A DNA stretch of 63,612 nt, counting the filler. It is 6 parts of 6 records of this genome, joined end to end, with 100 filler letters (N's around TTAATTAATTAA, not from the genome) between each part and the next. Parts side by side here need not be neighbours in the genome. Positions count along the whole stretch, not along the records: positions 55,581 to 63,612 come from SRR31156797_52468; 5 more parts are not named here. The stretch is one strand, 5' to 3'. The notes under the pieces were generated by a model. That model did not search any database and was not told the DNA's origin. It saw nothing but the letters and a program-made list of their open reading frames with translations. The translations under genes and the position numbers were made by a program. Numbering within the stretch: the stretch's first letter is position 1; the number at the start of each line of letters is the position of its first letter. Positions 19,812-63,612 of the stretch are shown one piece after another.

Positions 19812-19911
19812 NNNNNNNNNNNNNNNNNNNNNNNNNNNNNNNNNNNNNNNNNNNNTTAATTAATTAANNNNNNNNNNNNNNNNNNNNNNNNNNNNNNNNN
19901 NNNNNNNNNNN
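19812..19911. other. Artificial contig linker
   Basis: N-run + TTAATTAATTAA (stops in all six frames) + N-run. Confidence 0.98.
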
Positions 19912-32927: not shown

Positions 32928-33027
32928 NNNNNNNNNNNNNNNNNNNNNNNNNNNNNNNNNNNNNNNNNNNNTTAATTAATTAANNNNNNNNNNNNNNNNN
33001 NNNNNNNNNNNNNNNNNNNNNNNNNNN
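32928..33027. other. Artificial contig linker
   Basis: N-run + TTAATTAATTAA + N-run. Confidence 0.98.
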
Positions 33028-38071: not shown

Positions 38072-38171
38072 NNNNNNNNNNNNNNNNNNNNNNNNNNNNN
38101 NNNNNNNNNNNNNNNTTAATTAATTAANNNNNNNNNNNNNNNNNNNNNNNNNNNNNNNNNNNNNNNNNNNN
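38072..38171. other. Artificial contig linker
   Basis: N-run + TTAATTAATTAA + N-run. Confidence 0.98.
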
Positions 38172-44419: not shown

Positions 44420-44519
44420 NNNNNNNNNNNNNNNNNNNNNNNNNNNNNNNNNNNNNNNNNNNNTTAATTAATTAANNNNNNNNNNNNNNNNNNNNNNNNN
44501 NNNNNNNNNNNNNNNNNNN
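44420..44519. other. Artificial contig linker
   Basis: N-run + TTAATTAATTAA + N-run. Confidence 0.98.
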
Positions 44520-52447: not shown

Positions 52448-55400
52448 TCATTTATCCTCTTTGGTCTTAACGGTCCATTCGTCATCGGAACGCTGAATAT
52501 CGGTCATGATCTTGGGTATGGGATTCCACTGGAGGAGTATGCTGAGTTCGTTTTCCCACTCATAGCTGCTGTTTTCCAGCTTGGGAAACCCCTTATAGCC
52601 GACCGTCAGATCCCACTCCCCCAGATGATGCACCAGGGCCAGGTCGATCTTGCTGACATTAAAGTGGGAGTCGTAGCGGTCCTTCTGGCCTGAATCGAAG
52701 ATATTGAAGGACTTCATCAGATCGGAGAAAAAGTTGTAGTCCTTCTCGATCCCCAGCTTGTCCCGATAGGGTTCAAAGTAGAGGTACATGTTCTTATTAC
52801 CTGAGGTCATGCTGTATTTCAGATCCATAAACTCATGGATCCGGTAGTTGAAGGCCCAGGTAAAGCTCAATTCGTTATTATTGAACTGCTGCAGGTTGAC
52901 CGTATAGTCTATGTTCAGATCTGTCGTGAAGCGCATCCTGTTCTTCCAGAAGGGCATCTTTGTAAAATCAAGATCATAGCCCGTACTGATCTTGGAGGGA
53001 ACGAAGGCCTCCTCTTCCGACTCCCAGGAGTACTCCTCCTTATCCCAGGTATAGGGCGTGGTGTACTCATGGGTGTAAGCGAAATAGAATCCGTAAAGAT
53101 CCGCACGGGAATAGCTTTTCGACCACTCCTCAAGCTCGAAGTCATAGTCCAGGGTCTGCTGAAGCTTGATATGCTCCGTAGGCGTATAGGTGGATGAAAA
53201 CTTCAGGGGCTCGAAGGTCCACTCCTCTTCCTCCTTGTACATGGTCTGTTCGATCTTGTTCTCCCAGTGAAAAATGTCCACGCCTGCCTTATGGGTATAG
53301 CTCTCCCTGGGATCCAGGGGAGGCAGATTGTAACTGAGCTCTTCGGAAACGAAGAAGTACTCAGGCTTGTACTGGACGAAAGCTCCCGTTTTGTGCTCCG
53401 TGACGTCCTCGTCGTTCCACTCGCCCCAGGATTCGTCGAAGACGGGATCCTCCCCCTCCGTATAGCTCTCGAAGGTTTTCGAGTAGATCTCGTTCTTGAT
53501 ATTGTAGTTGATATTGGATGCCGAAAACGCGTCGAAAAACTTCAGGGGATAGTAGTGGGAACTGAGGCTGTTGTCCCAGTCCACCGAGGTGGCCTGATAA
53601 TCGCTCAGCTCCATAGCGTAGGTCACATCCTCCTCTTCCAGACCGAAGGCGTTCAGATGGGTTCTGTAGTTGGTGGTGTAGCTGTTGACATTCTTCAGGT
53701 CCACCCGTTTATCCCAAAAGTAGTTATCGAGTGTGGTGGTCAGGCTGTTGGTGGTCAGAATGTAGCTCTCTTCCATCTCAAAATCCACATCCTCGGGCTC
53801 GTCCCATTCATCGCTGTTCGTGGTCCCTTCCACGTCCATCATGGTGGTAAAGCTGTAGCTGAAGCTGTTCTCGTAGAATACGGGGCTGCTGTTCTGAAAG
53901 AGGGCGGACCAGTACTCTCCCGGTTTCAGATCCCGGTCCCCGGCTTCCTCCTCAGTCGCCTCTTCCTCATCCCTGTCCCAGGGTGGGCTCAATTCATCCT
54001 TCTCAGCCTCCTCCCCGTCTTCGGTCTCCCTTCCCCAGTCCCAGCCGTCCCGGCTGGAGTAGGAGAAAGGCGTCCCCTTGAGGGAGATCTGCACATAGGG
54101 AAACTTGAAGCTGTCGGGATAGAAAAAGGTTCTGGCCGGAGACAGAGAGTCATCGCTCAGGACCTCGTTATTCGTCTTCTTGTCCCATTCAAGGGTTGCC
54201 TTGAGATTGCTGACCGTTATGGACTCGAGAAAGGGCGCCGTCAGCTCGGGCTGAAAGGTTTTGGTATAGCCGAGAGTCCAGTCCATATCGGAGATCTCAT
54301 CGGAATCATCCTCGTCATCCTCGTCCTCCTCTTCCGATGTCATCAGGCTGCTCACCCAGTCGAAGTTTTCCTCCCGATCCATAAAATCATCATTGAAATA
54401 AGGATCCGAATAGAAGGGGATCTCCCCTTTCACGCCGAAGATATCGAAACTCAGTTCGTTCCCCCAGCGGAAGGGATAGTCGTCGTCTCCCCAGTAAATG
54501 GTATGCCAATTGCTGCTGTACTCGCCGTCATCATCCATAAAATAGATATTGTCGCCCTCATCGACGCTCCGGCTGACGCCTATCCCGTTTCTGAACTCCA
54601 CACGTCCCGGTTTCCCGCTGAAACGGCCTTCCACACCCGAATAAGTCCCCAGGCGGGAGTACCAGTCCGCCATGACCTTCAGATAGTCCTCATCCTTGCC
54701 GTCCCCTTCCAGCTCATCCATCTTCATCAGATAGAGGCCCTCCCTGACCAGCTCGTAACGGCCTGTGGAGTCACCCAGGCTGAAGAGGGACTCGTCCTCC
54801 TCCGCCTCTTTCTGTCCCACCAGATAGGTGGTTGTCTGAATAAAGCTTCCGTAGCCCGTCTTGGTCCCCACCGCCGGATTGAAGATCATCTCGTTTCCCG
54901 GCTTGAAATAGAAGGGGATGTAGAACATGGGAACGTGTCCCACATAGAGGATGCCGTGGAGAATGCCCCACTCCTTCGGGCCCAGCATCCAGAGCTTGTC
55001 CGACTTGATATGGAAGGCCGGATCCTCACGGTCCTGGGTCTTGATGATACCGTCCTCCATGACAAATATCCTGCCGCTGCCGGATTTCCTGAGGATATCT
55101 CCGCTGAAGTAAAAGGTCTGCTCCTCCCCGTCGTCATTCTCGCGAACCCTGACAGAGGTGCCTTTGTAGATCAGACCGTTCCAGCTGTTGACGGAGAACT
55201 GAAGGCTGTCGCCGTAAAACACATCCTCCCTGTCCCCGCTGATCATGGTGTACTGCAGGTCTCCCCTGGCCGTAATGGTTTGCCTGGCCTGATTGAACAC
55301 CAGCTCTTCCGCCCTGATGATATGCCGACGTTTGTCGCCGTCCTGCTCCTCCATCTCGACCTCGACCCCTCCCTTGAGAACGACCATCTGCTGATCCGTC

Positions 55401-55480
55401 TCTTCCACGGTGAAGTAATCGCTGTTGCTTGCGGATTTTACGGAGATGACCGAGACGTTCTGATTGATCTGCTTATCATC
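52448..55480 (-). CDS. Spirochaete LptD-like outer-membrane protein, 5'-truncated
   Basis: OstA-like N-terminus, LYVGHVPMFYIPFYF.PG, aromatic-rich beta C-terminus; frame open to contig edge. Confidence 0.6.
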   Translation of the reverse strand, partial: DDKQINQNVSVISVKSASNSDYFTVEETDQQMVVLKGGVEVEMEEQDGDKRRHIIRAEELVFNQARQTITARGDLQYTMISGDREDVFYGDSLQFSVNSWNGLIYKGTSVRVRENDDGEEQTFYFSGDILRKSGSGRIFVMEDGIIKTQDREDPAFHIKSDKLWMLGPKEWGILHGILYVGHVPMFYIPFYFKPGNEMIFNPAVGTKTGYGSFIQTTTYLVGQKEAEEDESLFSLGDSTGRYELVREGLYLMKMDELEGDGKDEDYLKVMADWYSRLGTYSGVEGRFSGKPGRVEFRNGIGVSRSVDEGDNIYFMDDDGEYSSNWHTIYWGDDDYPFRWGNELSFDIFGVKGEIPFYSDPYFNDDFMDREENFDWVSSLMTSEEEDEDDEDDSDEISDMDWTLGYTKTFQPELTAPFLESITVSNLKATLEWDKKTNNEVLSDDSLSPARTFFYPDSFKFPYVQISLKGTPFSYSSRDGWDWGRETEDGEEAEKDELSPPWDRDEEEATEEEAGDRDLKPGEYWSALFQNSSPVFYENSFSYSFTTMMDVEGTTNSDEWDEPEDVDFEMEESYILTTNSLTTTLDNYFWDKRVDLKNVNSYTTNYRTHLNAFGLEEEDVTYAMELSDYQATSVDWDNSLSSHYYPLKFFDAFSASNINYNIKNEIYSKTFESYTEGEDPVFDESWGEWNDEDVTEHKTGAFVQYKPEYFFVSEELSYNLPPLDPRESYTHKAGVDIFHWENKIEQTMYKEEEEWTFEPLKFSSTYTPTEHIKLQQTLDYDFELEEWSKSYSRADLYGFYFAYTHEYTTPYTWDKEEYSWESEEEAFVPSKISTGYDLDFTKMPFWKNRMRFTTDLNIDYTVNLQQFNNNELSFTWAFNYRIHEFMDLKYSMTSGNKNMYLYFEPYRDKLGIEKDYNFFSDLMKSFNIFDSGQKDRYDSHFNVSKIDLALVHHLGEWDLTVGYKGFPKLENSSYEWENELSILLQWNPIPKIMTDIQRSDDEWTVKTKEDK

Positions 55481-55580
55481 NNNNNNNNNNNNNNNNNNNN
55501 NNNNNNNNNNNNNNNNNNNNNNNNTTAATTAATTAANNNNNNNNNNNNNNNNNNNNNNNNNNNNNNNNNNNNNNNNNNNN
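55481..55580. other. Artificial contig linker
   Basis: N-run + TTAATTAATTAA + N-run. Confidence 0.98.
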
Positions 55581-56294
55581 TTCTCCAATAAAGAACATAC
55601 CCCATCTCATTCCTGAATACTCTGTAGCATATCCTGCAACAACCTCTGCTTCATGCTCAAGAAGATCAAATGGTGTTCTATTAGTCTCAGCGTATCCAGC
55701 AATTAAAAATAGGAAAAATGCAACTGGTTGAGACCAGATCATCCAATCAGTAATTCCACCTGCTTGATAGTTATTAATATCAATTAAAGATAATGAACCA
55801 ACTAGCATAAGCGGTGCTAATAATGAAAGCCCCGTTACAACTTCATAAGATAAAAGTTGAATCGCTGTTCTAGCTCCTCCAAGAAGTCCCCACTTATTTG
55901 CTTGAGACATACCTCCAAGAAGTGGACCATATAATCCTGTAGCCATCACACCAAGTACAAAAAGTACTCCAACATTTACATCTGATACAATTACTCCAGG
56001 AACAAAAGGAACAGCTGTCATTGCAATAAATGCGGTTGCAGCTGTAATAATTGGAGCGATCATAAAAATCAATCTATTTGCATGTTGAGGAATAAAATCC
56101 TCTTTTGTAAATAGTTTTGCACCATCTGCTAAGATTTGAAGAAGTCCATAAGGCCCAACATGCATTGGTCCTGGTCGTCTTTGCATAAATGCAAGTACCT
56201 TTCTTTCAATATAGGTTGTAAACCCTGCTAATGCAGAGAATACTGCTAATATAACAACTACTTTTACGAGCGTCATTAAAATATCATTATCCAT
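55581..56294 (-). CDS. nuoH: Complex I subunit NuoH, 3'-truncated
   Basis: ERKVLAFMQRRPGP, AETNRTPFDL, EVVAGYATEYSG. Confidence 0.95.
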
Positions 56295-56297
56295 CTT

Positions 56298-58751
56298 TTA
56301 CACCTTCTTAATATTTGCTGTAGTAAATCTACTATTGTCAAATAAGTTTCTAGTCTCACAAGTTTTATCAAACGTTGCAACATACGGTATCTCACCAGTA
56401 AGATCACTATCAATCATAACAGGTAATGTAATACTTACCCCATTTGCTGAAATCTCTGCATATTCATTTTCACTTGTTTCTAACTTGTCTGCGAGTTCTT
56501 TTGAAACATACAGAGCAACTATATCATTTTTTAGTTGATTTGCACGTGCTGTAAACTCATTGAACTGATTAATTGGATTTCCACTGTAGATAAAATACTC
56601 ACTTTCCTGTTTTGAAAGTGTTTTTAACTCATTTGTAATATCACCAATATCCTCATTAATAGTAGTGTTTTCAAGGTTATATCCTCTATGTTCTACTCTA
56701 TCATTTGAGTAGTGGTTTTCAAGATCATCAAATGCTACATTATGAAACAATTCACTAGTATACTCTATAGTGTGTTCTTTTTTACTTGTCAGTATCTCAT
56801 TAGCGATATCATTTAAACAATACCCATCATATGCTACAGCAGCATTTGTTGGGACTACTGTTTTATTAATATTTACAAATGTTCCTTCTTGTTGGGCAAG
56901 AACTGGCATATCAAGATCACCATCACCTAGGGCGCTCAGTTGATAATCTGCTACCATATTGTATCCAACAGTTTTTCCTGTAGATAATACATCAAGATCA
57001 CAAAGTAAACTTACTCCTAGAGTATTTGTTTGAGAAGGGATAATGAGTACTTTAAAGTTTGTATATTTTTGTACAGATGCTGCTAGTTTAGCAATATTAG
57101 AACTATTTGGATGGTTGATACAATCTTCACCAATAATTAAGCTATATGTATCTTTTTTTGCAAGCATTGCTTCTAAGGTTTCTAAAAATGATTCATCAGT
57201 TCCTATTACATCTAAAAGTTTTGTATAAGTATATTCTACTTCTGTTTGCACCTTTTTAGGTACCATCTTTTTCTTCACTGTCTCTTCACCAGTCTCAGGA
57301 TCAACAACAGTTTCTTCCACTTCTTCTTTGATAGTTTCTGTTACTGTTTTTGTTCTAGTCTCTCTTTGAGAGTCTAAAAAGCTTTGAATATTTTCAGGTA
57401 AGTTTTCACCAAATTGATCAAGGATAAAATATAAAATAGCTTCTTCACTCAGTGGATTTGAAACAATTGTTTCAATTGTTTTCCCTTTTTTTCCTAGACC
57501 TTCAATATGCTTATCTCCCATTGGATGAAAATAGATCCCTGCACCTTTATTCATCCCTATTGCATTATTAAATGCATATTTTACACTTGGTGCATCAGAT
57601 TTTAAGAATGATCCAACTGAGATAATAAAGTTACTGTTATGAATATCTTCTAAAGTTCCATTATAAAAACTTGACCCTGCAGTTTCTCCAAAAGTATTCA
57701 TAAACTCTTTAAATTTAAAAGCATCCATATTCACAAGTTTTACACCTGTTTTCTCTTTTAGAAGTTGTAATATTTTTACCTCTTCATTTGTGATAAATGA
57801 GTTAAAAAGAATTGAATCAGCATTTTTTACAGCATCTACTGCTTTTTTAAATTCTACTTCGTCTTTTGAAGCTTTATTAATAACATCAAATCCAAATCGT
57901 GCAGCTCCACTTAAACTTACATAGTGAGCATCATTTGTTACTCTATATATTCTTTTTTCAGTATTATTAGCAATTGTGTCATGTTTTACTTCATAGTACA
58001 TCAATGAACAATCTGAACTGTATGGATTTGAAGCTGGTACTTTTGTAAGCTCCCATGCATTTGAAGTATATTGGAAATCAGAACTTACAAGTGCTCCAAC
58101 TGGGCAAACTGCAATACACTCACCGCAATCGATACATTTGTCTTCTGTAAATCCGATAAGGTTTTTATTCAGCTTATTCCACATTGCATATGCATCTTTT
58201 GGCATACACTCTTTATACGCTTTATCGAGAGCATCCGCTCCTCTTTTTACAGTACCAAGTGCGTTTGATCCTATCATATCTTTACAGATTGTTACACACT
58301 TCTCACATACGATACAAAGACCTGGGTCATATTTCATTACTCCCCAGTTTGATGCTGGTCTATTTACATCTTTTACTGCATAGCTTTGAGAATCAACTTT
58401 CATGTACAATGAATAGTTTTGAAGTTCACACTCTCCACTTTGATCACAAACACCACATTGTAATGGATGGTTTACATCATAAACCTCCATAATGGCTCGT
58501 CTCTCTTTTTCAATGTTTTCAGTATCTACTTGTATTACCATTCCATCTTTTGATTTGGCATTACAAGCATATACTTGTTTTCCATCAGCTTCTACTAAAC
58601 AGAGTCGACACGCTAGTGTTGGTGTACACTTTGTTTGATAACAAACTGCTGGTATAAAAATACCATTTGCTCTTGCAACATTGAGAATAAATTCACCCTC
58701 ATTTGCTTGACACTCTTTCCCATTAATCGTTATATTGATCATATTCCCCAT
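56298..58751 (-). CDS. nuoG: Complex I subunit NuoG, Campylobacterota type
   Basis: ACRLCLVE, HPLQCGVCDQSGECELQ, CIVCEKC, CIDCGECIAVCP; MPKDAYAMW insert and acidic insert. Confidence 0.92.
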   Translation of the reverse strand: MGNMINITINGKECQANEGEFILNVARANGIFIPAVCYQTKCTPTLACRLCLVEADGKQVYACNAKSKDGMVIQVDTENIEKERRAIMEVYDVNHPLQCGVCDQSGECELQNYSLYMKVDSQSYAVKDVNRPASNWGVMKYDPGLCIVCEKCVTICKDMIGSNALGTVKRGADALDKAYKECMPKDAYAMWNKLNKNLIGFTEDKCIDCGECIAVCPVGALVSSDFQYTSNAWELTKVPASNPYSSDCSLMYYEVKHDTIANNTEKRIYRVTNDAHYVSLSGAARFGFDVINKASKDEVEFKKAVDAVKNADSILFNSFITNEEVKILQLLKEKTGVKLVNMDAFKFKEFMNTFGETAGSSFYNGTLEDIHNSNFIISVGSFLKSDAPSVKYAFNNAIGMNKGAGIYFHPMGDKHIEGLGKKGKTIETIVSNPLSEEAILYFILDQFGENLPENIQSFLDSQRETRTKTVTETIKEEVEETVVDPETGEETVKKKMVPKKVQTEVEYTYTKLLDVIGTDESFLETLEAMLAKKDTYSLIIGEDCINHPNSSNIAKLAASVQKYTNFKVLIIPSQTNTLGVSLLCDLDVLSTGKTVGYNMVADYQLSALGDGDLDMPVLAQQEGTFVNINKTVVPTNAAVAYDGYCLNDIANEILTSKKEHTIEYTSELFHNVAFDDLENHYSNDRVEHRGYNLENTTINEDIGDITNELKTLSKQESEYFIYSGNPINQFNEFTARANQLKNDIVALYVSKELADKLETSENEYAEISANGVSITLPVMIDSDLTGEIPYVATFDKTCETRNLFDNSRFTTANIKKV

Positions 58752-61033
58752 TATGCTTCAACCTTTTGGATTTGTACCTTTTTATATCTATAACCATCTT
58801 CAATTAGATCATTGTGAAAATTGTTATCAAACGTAGGATATAAGGCTACGGTACCTTTTATATTTTTATCAATTTTAAATACTTTTTTTGTAATTTGATT
58901 ATTATAGCTTATGTTAACTTCATCTCCGTCTTTTATCTTTGCCGCTGTAGCAAAGGCTGCACTTCCTCGAAGTTGCTTGTTTGTTTGAAGGAGTAAAGAC
59001 TTACCTGTATTTTTATTAAATTGATGTAATGGCTCACATCTATAAACTATTGTTCCATTATAAGTTTCAATATCTGAGATTTCTTCTAAAGAGATATTTT
59101 CATCTGCTTTTTCTATTGCGTCTAGATTCAGATAGTACCCTCTTTTATCATTTCCTCTTTTATCGTATCCATTTTGTAAAGAATCAAATTCCATAGAGAT
59201 AAAACCTTTATTTTTAGGTAATATTGAAGTATATTCAATAGTATTATGTTTTTTCTCTTTTAAAATCTCATTAGCGATATCATTCAAACAATATCCATCA
59301 AAACTCAAAGCAACATTTGTATTGACTACTTTTTTATCAATATTTACAAATGTTCCCTCTTGTTGATTTAAAGCTGGTACTTCAATATCTCCAACACCAC
59401 TACTACTAATGATAAAATCACCCTCTTCATTATATCCAACTACTTTAGAGCCAATCTCACTATCAAGATCACAGATCAAACTCACCCCTAAAGTATTTGT
59501 TTGAGATGGGATAATAACTACTTTAAAGTCTGTATATCTATTAATAGCTCCAGCTAATTTTGCAATTTGAGAAGCTCTTGGGTGTGCTAAAAGATCTTCA
59601 CCAAGTACAAGAGTTTTATTTTTTCTTCTTATGAGTTTTTTGCTAATAAGTTCAAACTCTTCCTCACCAACACTACACTCACCACTTAAATATCCAATAT
59701 CAAGATCATCAAAATACTCTTTTAATTCACTTGGTATCTCTTTAATAAGATAGCTAGCAAGCATTGCCATTACACCCTCTTCACTTCCCACTTCATATTT
59801 TACAAATTGGTTGTATTTATTTTGTAAGGCAATATCATCAATTGGATGCATATAGATAAAATCTGCTCTTTGTTTTTTTGTTGCAATATTTACTGAATAT
59901 TTTACGACTGGATTATCTCTACTAATTCTAGTTCCAATCATAATAATAGCATCACTTTTTCTAATAGTCTCATTTGTACCGTCATATAAAGCTTTAGCAC
60001 TAATAGTTTCATAGTTTTTAATAAAATTTTGAAAATTCATAGCATCTGGATTTACAAGTTTTATTCCAGTTTGCTCTTTTAGCTTTTGTAAGATCATCGC
60101 TTCTTCATTTGTAATAAAAGAATTAAATCGAATAGCATCACTCTTTTTTATAGCTTCAACTGCAGATGCAAGTTTCTGTGGATCTTTTCCCGTCTCTTGA
60201 TTTTCAAAATGGAAACCAAATCTTCCAGCTCCACATATCTCACTAAATTCAAAATCGTTTGTTACTCTAGTGATCTTCTTTTCATATGGATTAGAAACTC
60301 CAGCATGTTTTACTTCATAATATAAGGCACATCCACTACTACAGTGAGCACAGGTCGCTGGAACTTTTCCAGACTCCCATGAGTTTGAAGTATATTTATA
60401 TTCATTTGAGATCAATGCTCCAACAGGACATACAGAGATACAATCTCCACACTGTTCACAACGTGAAAATTTCATATCTATAATAGACTTATATCCACCT
60501 GGTTTTACATATAGTGCAGCACTCCCAATCACTTCATTACAAGTATGTACACACTTTTCACACATGATACATAAAGATGGATCGTATCCTAAGATTCCCC
60601 ATTTTTTCTTTTTTCTTGCAGGTTCTTTTACTGCAAACTCTTGAGAATCTACTGCAAACTCTAAGGTTTTATTTTGAAGATCACATTCCCCACTTTTATC
60701 ACAAACTCCACATTGTAATGGATGATTTACATCATACATCTTCATAATATTTTGTCTATGTTTAAAAAGTTCAGGATTATTTGTAATAATATTAGCACCA
60801 TCTACTGCTTTTTCTTGACAAGAAAGCACGTGTCCATCTACACCTTCAACTTCAACTACACACATTCTACATGCAGTAATTGGAGATACTTTTGTAAGAT
60901 AACACATAGTTGGGATATAGATATCATTTGCTCTAGCAATATCTAGGATAGTTTCCCCATATACTCCTGTGCACTCTACACCATCAATAGTGATAGTAAT
61001 TACTTTTCCTCTATGTTGTACTCGTTCGCTCAT
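58751..61033 (-). CDS. nuoG: Second NuoG-like Fe-S subunit (possible SfrA-like partner)
   Basis: ACRMCVVE, HPLQCGVCDKSGEC, CEQCGDCISVCP, intact CAHCSSGC...C; ATG 61033 overlaps the upstream TGA. Confidence 0.85.
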   Translation of the reverse strand: MSERVQHRGKVITITIDGVECTGVYGETILDIARANDIYIPTMCYLTKVSPITACRMCVVEVEGVDGHVLSCQEKAVDGANIITNNPELFKHRQNIMKMYDVNHPLQCGVCDKSGECDLQNKTLEFAVDSQEFAVKEPARKKKKWGILGYDPSLCIMCEKCVHTCNEVIGSAALYVKPGGYKSIIDMKFSRCEQCGDCISVCPVGALISNEYKYTSNSWESGKVPATCAHCSSGCALYYEVKHAGVSNPYEKKITRVTNDFEFSEICGAGRFGFHFENQETGKDPQKLASAVEAIKKSDAIRFNSFITNEEAMILQKLKEQTGIKLVNPDAMNFQNFIKNYETISAKALYDGTNETIRKSDAIIMIGTRISRDNPVVKYSVNIATKKQRADFIYMHPIDDIALQNKYNQFVKYEVGSEEGVMAMLASYLIKEIPSELKEYFDDLDIGYLSGECSVGEEEFELISKKLIRRKNKTLVLGEDLLAHPRASQIAKLAGAINRYTDFKVVIIPSQTNTLGVSLICDLDSEIGSKVVGYNEEGDFIISSSGVGDIEVPALNQQEGTFVNIDKKVVNTNVALSFDGYCLNDIANEILKEKKHNTIEYTSILPKNKGFISMEFDSLQNGYDKRGNDKRGYYLNLDAIEKADENISLEEISDIETYNGTIVYRCEPLHQFNKNTGKSLLLQTNKQLRGSAAFATAAKIKDGDEVNISYNNQITKKVFKIDKNIKGTVALYPTFDNNFHNDLIEDGYRYKKVQIQKVEA

Positions 61034-63042
61034 ACTGCCACCATCCCTAGGTAATAACATCTCATACATCTCTCAGCTTCAGCTTGTGCTTCTTCGGCTG
61101 TAAATCCAAGGTTTACCTCTTTATTATTATCTTTTCGAATTTCAGTTGCAAGCTTTTCACTCTCTTCTCGTGGAAGCCCAGGCATCCATCCAGTGATCTT
61201 TTCAGCTTTGTTATACACTTTCATTCTATTCATGTGATCTTCCATGATCTCATTATCTAAAAGTGAACACTCACCATTATAGATATATCTTGAGATAACT
61301 GAAGCTGCTCTTTTTGCTTGACCAACTGCATTTACAATAGTCATTGGACCATATTCACAGTCTCCTGCAGCAAAAAGCCCTTCTTTATTTGTCATATAAT
61401 CTTTACCATTTGTTTGGATCGATGACCATGATGTCATCTCTATATTCCACTCTTCAGGGATAATTTGAAGATCTAATGCTTGAGATACTGCTGGAACAAC
61501 GTAATCACATTCAATCTTCTCTGAAGCACCTTCAATCTTTACAAGCTGTGGTCTTCCACCATTTGGATCTGGAACTTGTTCATACTTATCTACAATAACT
61601 GCCGTGATCTTTCCATTATCATCAATAATAGTATCAATTGCAGAATAGAAAATAAACTCTACTCCCTCCTCAACAGCTTCTGTGTACTCTTCTAAAGTTG
61701 TATTTCTAATGATCGTTTTTTCATCACGTCTATAGAGCATCACTACTCTTTTTGCACCCTCTCTAATTGAACATCTTACAACATCCATAGAGGTAAATCC
61801 ACCACCGACACATACAACTGTTTTATCTTTAAGCTCAACTGATGCAGACTCACCGATCCCATATTTATTCCAAAGGTTTACTTTATCAAGCATCTCAATT
61901 GCTCCCCAGTACCCTTCAAAACTTGGATCTTCATTTTCACATCTGATTTTTTTAGAAAGTCTTGCTCCAAAAGCTAAAAGCGTTGCATCAAACTCTTCAT
62001 GGATCTCTTTTAATCTATTGGCATCTACTCTATGATTTCGAATAATCTCTACAGACGGCAAGTCTTCAACTAACTGAATATCTATATTATATTTTTCTAC
62101 AGGCATTCTATATTGAGGAACTCCAACTGCAACCTCTCCACCAAGAACTGGAAGCTCTTCAAAGATAGTTACTGAGATCCCTTCAATTCCTAGATAATAT
62201 GCAGCTGTAAGTCCAGCAGGTCCCGCTCCAATAATCGCAACTTTTTTTCCATCATTTCTAGGCTTTTTAGGCTTTACTGGATGAAACCATTCAAGTTCAT
62301 GATCAGTTTCATAATCAGCCCCTATTCTTTTAAGCTCCATAATAGAGATAGGGTCATCTAGATTTCCTCTTCTACATGCATCTTCACATGGATGAGGACA
62401 CACTCTACCACATGTATGTGATAAAGGCATTGTTTGTCTTGTTGATTTTAAAGAGTTTTCAAAATCAAGCTCCCTTACCCCTTCAATATATCCTGGAATA
62501 TCCACATGGGCTGGACACATATCTGTACATGGTGCAGTTACATTGGCGATATATTTTTCATCATTTGTTTCATACCAAGGAGACTTGCTTTTATTTTCTA
62601 TTAAAGAGATAAATTGATCTTCAAATGCTTCAATCATAGCTAAAATAGGGACTGGTACAGTTTTTCCTATCTCACATTTACTTGTAGCAGTCATCGTAGA
62701 ACTTATCTCTTTAATATGTTCTAGATCACTTCGCTCACCCTCACCTCTAGCAATCTTATCAAGCATATCAAAAAGGATCTGTCCACCCCATCGTCCAGGA
62801 GTACATCTACCACATGCCTCACTGTACTCTTGATACTGTCTTGCATAATTCATCGCTAGCTTTACAACATCCACATCTTGCTCAAAAAGGGCAAATCCAT
62901 CCCATCCTACAAATGCTTTTGTTGTCTCACTACTTGTATAATTTACAGGGAGTTTTGCAGATACATCCGCCCACTCTTCAGCAGACACACCTCTATTATC
63001 AACAATCTCTCCTTGCCAATTAGAATAATACACTTTACTCAA
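61030..63042 (-). CDS. SfrB/GltD-like FAD Fe-S NAD(P)H oxidoreductase with N-terminal NuoF-like Fe-S domain
   Basis: AFVGWDG, CGRCTPG..KC, APCTDMCPAHVDIPGYI, CGRVCPHPCE, GAGPAG, VGGGFT, LYRR, EAERCMRC; TTG start after GGAAGGA. Confidence 0.85.
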   Translation of the reverse strand: MSKVYYSNWQGEIVDNRGVSAEEWADVSAKLPVNYTSSETTKAFVGWDGFALFEQDVDVVKLAMNYARQYQEYSEACGRCTPGRWGGQILFDMLDKIARGEGERSDLEHIKEISSTMTATSKCEIGKTVPVPILAMIEAFEDQFISLIENKSKSPWYETNDEKYIANVTAPCTDMCPAHVDIPGYIEGVRELDFENSLKSTRQTMPLSHTCGRVCPHPCEDACRRGNLDDPISIMELKRIGADYETDHELEWFHPVKPKKPRNDGKKVAIIGAGPAGLTAAYYLGIEGISVTIFEELPVLGGEVAVGVPQYRMPVEKYNIDIQLVEDLPSVEIIRNHRVDANRLKEIHEEFDATLLAFGARLSKKIRCENEDPSFEGYWGAIEMLDKVNLWNKYGIGESASVELKDKTVVCVGGGFTSMDVVRCSIREGAKRVVMLYRRDEKTIIRNTTLEEYTEAVEEGVEFIFYSAIDTIIDDNGKITAVIVDKYEQVPDPNGGRPQLVKIEGASEKIECDYVVPAVSQALDLQIIPEEWNIEMTSWSSIQTNGKDYMTNKEGLFAAGDCEYGPMTIVNAVGQAKRAASVISRYIYNGECSLLDNEIMEDHMNRMKVYNKAEKITGWMPGLPREESEKLATEIRKDNNKEVNLGFTAEEAQAEAERCMRCYYLGMVAV

Positions 63043-63066
63043 AACAAATCCTTCCACTAAAGAGTA

Positions 63067-63345
63067 CTACTCTGTAGCTTCTTCCTCTTCACTTACAGGA
63101 AGTTCATCAACCGGTGGTTGCTCTTTTTTAATAACTACTGTCCAGTCAACCTCATTGAATTTTAAAGAGTTCATTAATCTCCAGTTATTCTCTTTTACCG
63201 TATCAGTTGCTGCTTGAACTGAAGAAAAGTCACCGATCTCAAAAAGAAAAATACCATTTTCCCCTTCAGAAATTTCACTATTCATTAGTTCAACCATTCT
63301 TGGGATAAAGTTCTCTTTATGCCCTCTTAAATCATATCTTTTCAT
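63067..63345 (-). CDS. Campylobacterota NuoE-substitute small subunit
   Basis: MKRYDLR...FLFEIGDFS...LMNSLKFNEVDWTVVIKK; directly after nuoD; contains no Cys. Confidence 0.8.
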   Translation of the reverse strand: MKRYDLRGHKENFIPRMVELMNSEISEGENGIFLFEIGDFSSVQAATDTVKENNWRLMNSLKFNEVDWTVVIKKEQPPVDELPVSEEEEATE

Positions 63346-63612
63346 TACCTATCAATCTCCCCAAATACAATATTAAGGTTACCAATAATTGTAACAACAT
63401 CGGCTAACTGGTGACCTGGTAGCATATCTTGTAATAATCCTGTATGCCAAAAACTTGGAGCTCTACATTTTAACTTGTATGGATAAGGTGATCCATCACT
63501 TACGATATAAAATCCTAACTCCCCTTTTGGAGACTCAGTAGCAACGTAAACTTCACCAACTGGTGGTCTCATCCCTTGTGTTACTAATACAAAGTGTTGC
63601 ATTAAAGAGTAG
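63345..63612 (-). CDS. nuoD: Complex I subunit NuoD, C-terminal part
   Basis: [21 protein letters not shown]. Confidence 0.93.

Follow-up and report, generated by a model that had tools for sequence, protein, structure and literature searches.

In a 2019 preprint (10.1101/717884), complex I of Sulfurimonas denitrificans is described with an NfnB-like replacement of NuoF, Suden_1824, and with two NuoG copies, the short Suden_1823 and the long Suden_1822. The NADPH-phosphate residues of Suden_1824 are reported there as conserved, and a Tyr-Arg-Arg motif is equated with the NADPH-phosphate site of NfnB. The NuoG copies differ in two regions (aa 175–204 and 466–532 of Suden_1822 are absent from the short copy) and have similar transcript levels. 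The same text calls this composition universal in Sulfurimonas and Sulfurovum, attributes the first remark on the two NuoG copies to Weerakoon and Olson (2008), and proposes that a reversed, possibly bifurcating complex I feeds ferredoxin and NAD(P)H to the reductive tricarboxylic acid (rTCA) cycle. Here we analyzed a 63,612-nt stretch of DNA (the window), the last piece of which carries part of a complex I (nuo) operon with a NuoX gene, an iron-sulfur (Fe-S) flavoprotein gene and two tandem nuoG genes. The first-pass annotation of this stretch had listed the arrangement as a candidate, a status that is outdated because both the layout and the reverse-flow hypothesis are already published (10.1101/717884).

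The region is predicted to encode the electron-input module of a Sulfurimonas-type non-canonical complex I, with a PF16514 NuoX after nuoD, the flavoprotein in the NuoF slot and tandem NuoGs. We consider it moderately probable that these proteins belong to one membrane complex. Its canonical NuoG site would be filled by the long NuoG, with a stacked NADP(H) arm, made of the short NuoG and the flavoprotein, working mainly in reverse. The operon is the published prime suspect for the supply of NADPH and reduced ferredoxin in rTCA Campylobacterota, and the locus in the window is one more carrier, from an Arcobacteraceae-like lineage. Campylobacterota using the rTCA cycle rank among the main primary producers of vents and sulfidic waters.

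Layout of the operon and its flavoprotein

The genes of the operon segment are located as follows.

63345–63611, minus strand: 3′ end of nuoD (PF00346, E 4.9e-34; TIGR01962, E 2.5e-37); the gene runs past the end of the window
63067–63345, minus strand: NuoX, HP1264-type, 92 aa, in the NuoE slot (PF16514, E 3.5e-33; PDB 2lxr_A, E 2.6e-17; no Cys)
61030–63057, minus strand: Fe-S flavoprotein, 675 aa, GTG start, in the NuoF slot (PF10589 at aa 68–149, PF14691 and PF07992)
58751–61033, minus strand: short NuoG (NuoG′), 760 aa from the ATG at 61033 (PRK08493, 881.8 bits in two stretches)
56298–58751, minus strand: long NuoG, 817 aa (PRK08493, 1074.1 bits, aa 4–816 against model positions 1–817 of 819)
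55581–56294, minus strand: 5′ part of nuoH (PF00146, E 1.6e-83, profile positions 2–223 of 298), cut by a spacer

All six genes are confined to the last piece of the window (55581–63612, GC 0.343, minus strand). They were recovered where the first-pass annotation had placed them, together with the motifs that it had read in them (GWDG, CGRCTPG, YRR, CAHCSSGC and PASNPYSSDC) and its ATGA and TAATG overlaps. Stop/start overlaps of one and four bases link the operon genes: the nuoD stop TAA and the nuoX ATG overlap as TAATG, the junction of short and long NuoG is built likewise, and the flavoprotein stop overlaps the ATG at 61033 as ATGA. The frame of the short NuoG is open to 61069 (open reading frame [ORF] 58751–61069), and the ATG at 61033 is most likely its true start. 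The gaps are 9 nt ahead of the flavoprotein GTG and 3 nt ahead of nuoH. Along its full 8032 bases, the last piece is 97.8% identical in DNA to a contig from a Campylobacterales metagenome-assembled genome (MAG), and this locus (L001) and its genome (G001) were used as stand-ins for the host genome of the window. The full operon in L001 reads nuoABCD-X-flavoprotein-Gs-Gl-HIJKLM, where Gs is the short and Gl the long NuoG, and its intact nuoH encodes 319 aa.

The flavoprotein consists of two parts.

62587–62958, minus strand: NuoF/HydB C-terminal (N3-cluster) domain, flavoprotein aa 34–157 (phmmer matches to 9n5u_B, 7t2r_B, 8a6t_B, 9bov_B and 2fug_1)
61054–62541, minus strand: circularly permuted GltD/NfnB-type module, flavoprotein aa 173–668 (YRR at aa 442–444, CxxC at aa 664–667)

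In canonical complex I, the C-terminal domain of NuoF holds cluster N3 and contacts NuoG and NuoE. NuoF models match the flavoprotein at aa 29–150 only, and a Pfam search at E ≤ 0.01 gave no match to the FMN/NADH domain PF01512. Judged by domain and cysteine content, NuoF is replaced in this operon by a flavoprotein that keeps only the NuoF C-terminal domain, and NuoE by the Cys-free NuoX, so the annotation was right that the operon has no true NuoE or NuoF. The domain contains GWDG at aa 51 and CGRCTPG at aa 82. Its N3 site has three of the four Cys (C82, C85 and C128), the third being Gly88, and reads CGRCxPG instead of the canonical four-Cys motif CxxCxxC...C; all 23 orthologues compared are alike in this.

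The second part has the Fer4_20, FAD and NADPH Rossmann content of the GltD/NfnB (NfnL)/SudA type (PF14691, PF07992). Its order is not the linear one of GltD and NfnB, in which the CxxC is N-terminal; the CxxC segment of the flavoprotein is C-terminal. Since the C-terminal aa 636–667, which include this invariant CxxC, align to the N-terminal aa 11–42 of Thermotoga maritima NfnB (4ylf_B, E 7.3e-64 overall), the module is circularly permuted, with the order found in StnC and NfnA, and it is colinear with residues from about 100 to 567/594 of those proteins. The best PDB relatives of the module are the GltD-like parts of 9bov_A (E 3.6e-79), 9n5u_A (NfnA) and 8oh5_C (StnC); no Campylobacter-type complex I was among the PDB sequence matches. 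C177, C181, C216, C220, C224, C228, C664 and C667 are invariant in 23/23 orthologues, and these eight Cys, including the C-terminal CxxC, would suffice for two [4Fe-4S] clusters. Y442, R443 and R444 are equally invariant, which upholds the earlier assignment to NADPH-type, GltD/NfnB-like Fe-S flavoproteins.

Orthologues of the flavoprotein in 22 loci show 51–90% identity, with 70–73% in MAGs labelled Sulfurimonas and Sulfurovum (73% in the Sulfurimonas sp. MAG locus L019). The best 120 of 1501 homologues found with aa 1–172 were all close orthologues of 390–672 aa, named "FAD-dependent oxidoreductase" or "formate dehydrogenase (NADP+) beta subunit", the latter being a Joint Genome Institute (JGI) name; none of these 120 was named SfrB. 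Two divergent arrangements were also observed. L051:4885–13965 (G280) encodes a flavoprotein of 962 aa and, after it, two NuoG paralogues (1046 and 1012 aa), and L052:5518–7692 (G047) encodes a 724-aa flavoprotein that matches that of the window only from aa 163, its N-terminal domain being different.

The domain content bears on the model of McNichol and Sievert, in which complex I is bifurcating/confurcating and, driven in reverse by the proton motive force, reduces ferredoxin and NAD(P)+ in a 1:1 ratio, the site of bifurcation being a NuoG or the NfnB-like FAD. This model overlaps with the stacked-arm reading, and we regard it as quite unlikely. The GltD/NfnB-type module is homologous to the NfnSL subunit that holds the bifurcating FAD (the 4ylf_B match above), the long NuoG has an extra [4Fe-4S] site in 21/21 orthologues, and the accessible part of the preprint gives a growth-yield argument (10.1101/717884). 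Bifurcation of the Bfu type (HydABC, NfnABC, StnABC), however, needs an FMN-containing NuoF/HydB core and a [2Fe-2S] NuoE-like subunit. It is excluded here by a flavoprotein without PF01512 and a Cys-free NuoX. The full operon of L001 encodes no NfnA/NfnS-like small subunit either.

The NuoG paralogues and NuoY

The two NuoGs share 43.9% identity over 743 aligned columns (pairwise MAFFT). Both match PF13510, PF10588 and PRK08493, and thus comprise the N1b, His-ligated N5 and N4 regions and a molybdopterin-oxidoreductase-like C-terminal part. PRK08493 is the NCBIfam model of the Campylobacter/Helicobacter-type NuoG, and the long NuoG covers it end to end. The features that distinguish the two proteins are listed here.

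58170–58235, minus strand: insert 1 of long NuoG, aa 173–194, between two ferredoxin-type motifs (MAFFT against short NuoG)
57243–57371, minus strand: insert 2 of long NuoG, aa 461–503, rich in charged residues (MAFFT against short NuoG)
60329–60352, minus strand: CAHCSSGC, the first three N7 ligands of short NuoG; the fourth Cys, C267, is invariant
58008–58037, minus strand: PASNPYSSDC, the degenerate N7 site of long NuoG, with one Cys remaining

This agrees with the annotation, which had noted two inserts and a single N7 Cys in the long NuoG and a short NuoG without inserts and with N7 kept. For the short NuoG, 21–22 of 22 orthologues retain the Cys ligands of N1b, N5, N4 and N7, and His104 of N5 is invariant; a second ferredoxin-type cluster site is present in 15 of them, the window included, and lost in seven. 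In the long NuoG, the N1b and N5 motifs, both CxxCxxCxxxC motifs and the Cys ligands of N1b, N5 and N4 are kept in 21/21 orthologues and His95 is invariant, with Cys at the N7 positions in only 7–9 of the 21 (about a third). The Fe-S cluster content of the NuoGs varies by lineage. Two of the genes were found split, the short NuoG of L023 into ORFs of 333 and 420 aa and the long NuoG of L049 into ORFs of 309 and 537 aa, which may be due to frameshift, assembly error or real decay.

Six flavoprotein-less loci (L043–L048) encode a protein of 234–339 aa, here called NuoY, between NuoX and a single NuoG. By gene position and the gene order given in the literature, and not by a named sequence, NuoY would correspond to cj1574c/HP1265. 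A Pfam scan of these six proteins found no domain, and NCBIfam gave only sub-threshold matches to PRK08493. The NuoY of L047 is homologous to two segments of the short NuoG in the window.

59417–59971, minus strand: first NuoY-homologous segment, short NuoG aa 355–539 (BLASTP against L047 NuoY, 44% identity, E 4e-47)
58757–59092, minus strand: second NuoY-homologous segment, short NuoG aa 648–759 (BLASTP against L047 NuoY, 35% identity, E 7e-18)

The BLASTP match of the same NuoY to the long NuoG was E 6e-13. In hhalign, the NuoY profile matched the short NuoG with a probability of 100% (E 3.6e-48) and the long NuoG with 97.6% (E 3.4e-12); with L047 removed from the profile, the short NuoG was still matched at 99.9% (E 3.6e-35). 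An AlphaFold2 model of one NuoY, with a mean predicted local distance difference test score (pLDDT) of 93.2, shows a molybdopterin-oxidoreductase fold, and its Foldseek matches were formate dehydrogenases, dimethyl sulfoxide (DMSO) reductases and NuoG/Nqo3 of complex I (query-normalised TM-score up to 0.63). On this homology evidence, NuoY is a truncated short NuoG, homologous to its C-terminal half. The first-pass annotation had stated that there is no second Campylobacter-type substitute gene between nuoD and nuoH. This is literally so, but it missed that the substitute is itself a shortened form of the short NuoG.

Of 301 evenly sampled Campylobacterota genomes, 283 were matched by the NuoY profile. 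The best 150 matches were ORFs of 227–351 aa (E ≤ 1.4e-40), and none of these was in a flavoprotein-positive genome; across loci, the size of NuoY is 224–351 aa. In the literature searched, no origin of NuoY from a NuoG was found, and no fold or homology was assigned to cj1574c/HP1265. Three of the operon NuoY proteins had no exact match in public records, probably because of start-codon choice. The result gives an evolutionary and structural handle on the Campylobacter/Helicobacter complex I, and an ancestry or family is now known for both proteins that stand in the NuoE and NuoF slots of that enzyme.

NuoY is not always part of a nuo operon. Among 20 additional NuoY loci chosen for diversity, 12 have NuoG downstream, two have no large ORF in the stretch, and in six unrelated genes follow (a TPR/DUF7494 protein or a Maf-like protein). 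Orphan NuoY-like genes of 224–238 aa were found at L107:8540–9256 (minus strand) and in L089, L092, L093, L098, L100 and L101. The orphan gene of L107, whose product is only a "hypothetical protein" in public records, adjoins ubiA and miaA, the site of the nuo operon in relatives. NuoA (PF00507) was detected in only one of five orphan-NuoY genomes searched and was not found in the other four. Since NuoY is retained in these four genomes, the role of the relic needs no complex I. We had considered that the retention of NuoY proves a structural role of the short NuoG in complex I, and this idea was dropped because the orphan genes exist.

The relationship of the proteins was evaluated with two trees. 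In a quick IQ-TREE analysis of 39 full-length NuoGs, one branch (support 100) separates the short NuoGs from the remaining sequences. The five single NuoGs of flavoprotein-less operons all lie with the long NuoGs (support 100), at three distinct positions; forcing these five together was rejected by the approximately unbiased (AU) test (p 3e-63). By alignment and tree, the long NuoG is the orthologue of the single NuoG in flavoprotein-less operons, and the duplication into short and long NuoG appears to be old. The second tree was a careful search on the 239 columns common to NuoGs and NuoY. Here the long NuoGs form one clade (100/99) and all five NuoYs branch off among the short NuoGs at three positions, in parallel with the NuoG tree; a long-branch warning attaches to one of the joins. 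The NuoYs were united in 0 of 200 bootstrap trees, and a single NuoY clade was not rejected (AU p 0.069). Multiple origins therefore rest mainly on the NuoG tree and on the truncation boundaries, which differ between the three groups. We read NuoY as having arisen from the short NuoG by deletion, probably two or three times.

These results bear on the proposal that the two NuoGs are alternating heads on one NuoCDI site, namely the short NuoG with the flavoprotein for NADPH, or the long NuoG for flavodoxin/ferredoxin. Both proteins keep the Cys ligands of N1b, N5 and N4 (21–22 of 22 short and 21 of 21 long NuoGs), so either could in principle pass electrons to NuoI. On the other hand, the tight translational coupling of the genes predicts equal amounts of both NuoGs, and similar transcript levels of the two are given in the preprint (10.1101/717884). 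Moreover, the lineages that lost the NADPH arm kept the whole long NuoG and only a cofactor-free piece of the short one, which fits a fixed canonical role of the former and an add-on role of the latter. The short NuoG always accompanies the flavoprotein, so the two NuoGs are not alternatives for one site. The interchangeable heads of the first-pass annotation, set against the orthology of the long NuoG to the single NuoG, are thus very unlikely.

In summary, the two-NuoG, NADPH-linked complex I would be the older form in the sampled lineages. The flavodoxin-type complex would be derived from it, probably repeatedly, through deletion of the flavoprotein together with the Fe-S half of the short NuoG. 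NuoY would be the cofactor-free remnant, with a function of its own, of two molybdopterin-fold subdomains. We hold this joint reading to be likely. The function of the remnant may possibly be flavodoxin handling, a task that in the window might also fall to the C-terminal half of the short NuoG.

Distribution and host

The surroundings of the flavoprotein gene were compared in 37 Campylobacterota loci (labelled Arcobacteraceae, Sulfurovum, Sulfurimonas, Nitratifractor and others); three further matches of the search were unrelated GltD of Opitutia. NuoX is ahead of the flavoprotein in 32/32 loci that reach upstream, and the short NuoG directly follows in all 34 that reach downstream, the remaining three ending inside the flavoprotein gene. 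The long NuoG comes next in 27/27 loci that reach further; in one of these, the short NuoG is present as two ORFs. Eight of eight additional flavoprotein loci from the 301-genome sample have the same gene order.

This synteny has to be weighed against the possibility that the flavoprotein pairs with the short NuoG in an SfrAB-like NADPH:ferredoxin/flavodoxin oxidoreductase, either soluble or loosely attached, whose only tie to complex I is co-transcription. NuoX, the long NuoG, NuoA–D and NuoH–N would then make up a flavodoxin/ferredoxin:quinone oxidoreductase, and a diffusible carrier would connect it with NADPH. The make-up of the pair, a GltD-like protein of ~670 aa and a NuoG/FdhA-like subunit, is that given in the literature for SfrB and SfrA, and the two halves of StnC are related to SfrB (39.9% identity) and SfrA (27.8%) according to the Stn paper. 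Most operons in the phylum sample lack both the flavoprotein and the Fe-S half of the short NuoG, and NuoY in the four genomes without a detected NuoA lives apart from complex I. However, what the flavoprotein retains of NuoF is precisely the domain by which canonical NuoF docks on NuoG and NuoE. In all loci examined, both genes are placed after nuoX and before the long nuoG, and stop and start codons overlap. Among the fetched loci, the pair was found only within nuo operons. We therefore consider a separate enzyme unlikely.

In the 301-genome sample, a flavoprotein orthologue (threshold E ≤ 1e-100) was present in 67 genomes and some NuoG match in 248, in line with the expectation of the annotation that similar gene orders exist in other free-living Campylobacterota, where the order is indeed widespread. 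The ATP-citrate lyase marker PF16114 was found in 66 of the 301, that is, in 54 of the 67 flavoprotein genomes and in 12 of the 234 others. Thus 54 genomes have both, 13 the flavoprotein only, 12 the marker only and 222 neither (Fisher p 3e-35, relatedness of the genomes not being allowed for). This strong co-occurrence fits the link to reverse electron flow that the annotation had considered possible. A true NuoF domain was found in one of five further flavoprotein carriers.

The best relatives are a Campylobacterales MAG (99% protein identity) and an Arcobacteraceae MAG (90%), and G001 carries PF16114. The host is an Arcobacteraceae-like member of the Campylobacterota that is probably autotrophic by the rTCA cycle. 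G001, the 99%-identical relative, also has HoxE-HoxF-HoxU genes (L041, G001:C20). In addition, a 2.5-kb contig (L042, G001:C176) carries nuoD-nuoE-nuoF; its GC of 0.36 fits the organism and it may belong to a second, canonical NADH-type complex I, contamination of the MAG being also possible.

The window as a whole consists of six contig pieces with GC from 0.34 to 0.57, joined by N44-TTAATTAATTAA-N44 spacers. A single source organism is therefore not required for all pieces, and where a gene meets a joint, as nuoH does, its truncation is artificial and not biological. Two features lie outside the operon piece.

19812–19911, 32928–33027, 38072–38171, 44420–44519 and 55481–55580, no strand: the five artificial joints N44-TTAATTAATTAA-N44
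52448–55408, minus strand: a highly acidic ORF of 986 aa, rich in D, E, W and Y, on the unrelated neighbouring piece (GC 0.54), overlapped by a long antisense ORF

Proposed electron path and comparison with known systems

In the stacked-arm reading, the flavoprotein, NuoX and both NuoGs would all sit on a single membrane complex. The long NuoG would occupy the canonical site beside NuoI and NuoCD, and the short NuoG with the flavoprotein would be stacked on it as the NADP(H) arm. Electrons could then pass from NADPH to FAD, through the two [4Fe-4S] clusters and the N3-like site to the short NuoG, and on through the long NuoG, NuoI and NuoB to quinone. In rTCA autotrophs, the arm would mainly run in the opposite direction, with quinol and the proton motive force yielding NADPH. 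Complex I of Campylobacter jejuni has been reported to work with flavodoxin. The flavodoxin/ferredoxin site of that enzyme is probably retained, which would give the complex two outlets or inlets.

Several points weigh against this reading. The third Cys of the N3 site is Gly in 23/23 orthologues, so a cluster linking the flavoprotein and NuoG is not assured. A complex with only the long NuoG is self-sufficient, given that operons without the flavoprotein and the Fe-S half of the short NuoG exist and that the C. jejuni enzyme of this type is reported to use flavodoxin. The persistence of NuoY in the four genomes in which NuoA was not found means that this part of the short NuoG need not bind complex I. 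The association with ATP-citrate lyase ignores shared ancestry, and the 13 flavoprotein genomes without the marker and the 12 marker genomes without the flavoprotein depart from it. Finally, full-text literature searches found no biochemical or structural study of any carrier of the operon. The full and the reduced complexes constitute a natural experiment for comparison.

The complex I of C. jejuni and Helicobacter pylori (nuoD, cj1575c/HP1264, cj1574c/HP1265, nuoG) resembles that of the window in NuoX, in a long NuoG that is orthologous and in the extra ferredoxin-type cluster site of this NuoG. It differs in having neither the flavoprotein nor the Fe-S half of the short NuoG, with NuoY in their place.

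SfrAB, the NADPH-dependent Fe(III)/ferredoxin oxidoreductase of Geobacter sulfurreducens, is a soluble enzyme whose genes lie outside the nuo operon. Like the pair in the window, it combines a GltD-like NADPH subunit with a NuoG/formate-dehydrogenase-like Fe-S subunit, a likeness of make-up. Unlike SfrAB, which is encoded apart from the complex I genes, the pair is embedded between nuoX and the second nuoG, and it lies within a nuo operon in all loci examined.

Among solved structures, those best matching the GltD-type module are StnC and NfnA (8oh5_C, 9bov_A and 9n5u_A; E 1e-70 to 4e-79). They have in common with the flavoprotein the circular permutation, with the CxxC after the flavin domains. 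In these proteins, the module is inserted in a NuoG-like chain, and the partners are FMN-containing NuoF-like and [2Fe-2S] NuoE-like subunits. In the window, by contrast, its fusion partner is a NuoF C-terminal domain alone, and there is no gene for an FMN subunit.

The complex I of S. denitrificans, as described in the preprint, differs from that of the window in its host, which here is Arcobacteraceae-like, conservation being stated there for Sulfurimonas and Sulfurovum (10.1101/717884). Another difference is the loss of N7 from the long NuoG in the lineage of the window. The inserts of the long NuoG lie at aa 173–194 and 461–503 in the window and at aa 175–204 and 466–532 in Suden_1822. The gene order, the NfnB-like flavoprotein with Tyr-Arg-Arg and the link to rTCA autotrophs are common to both systems.

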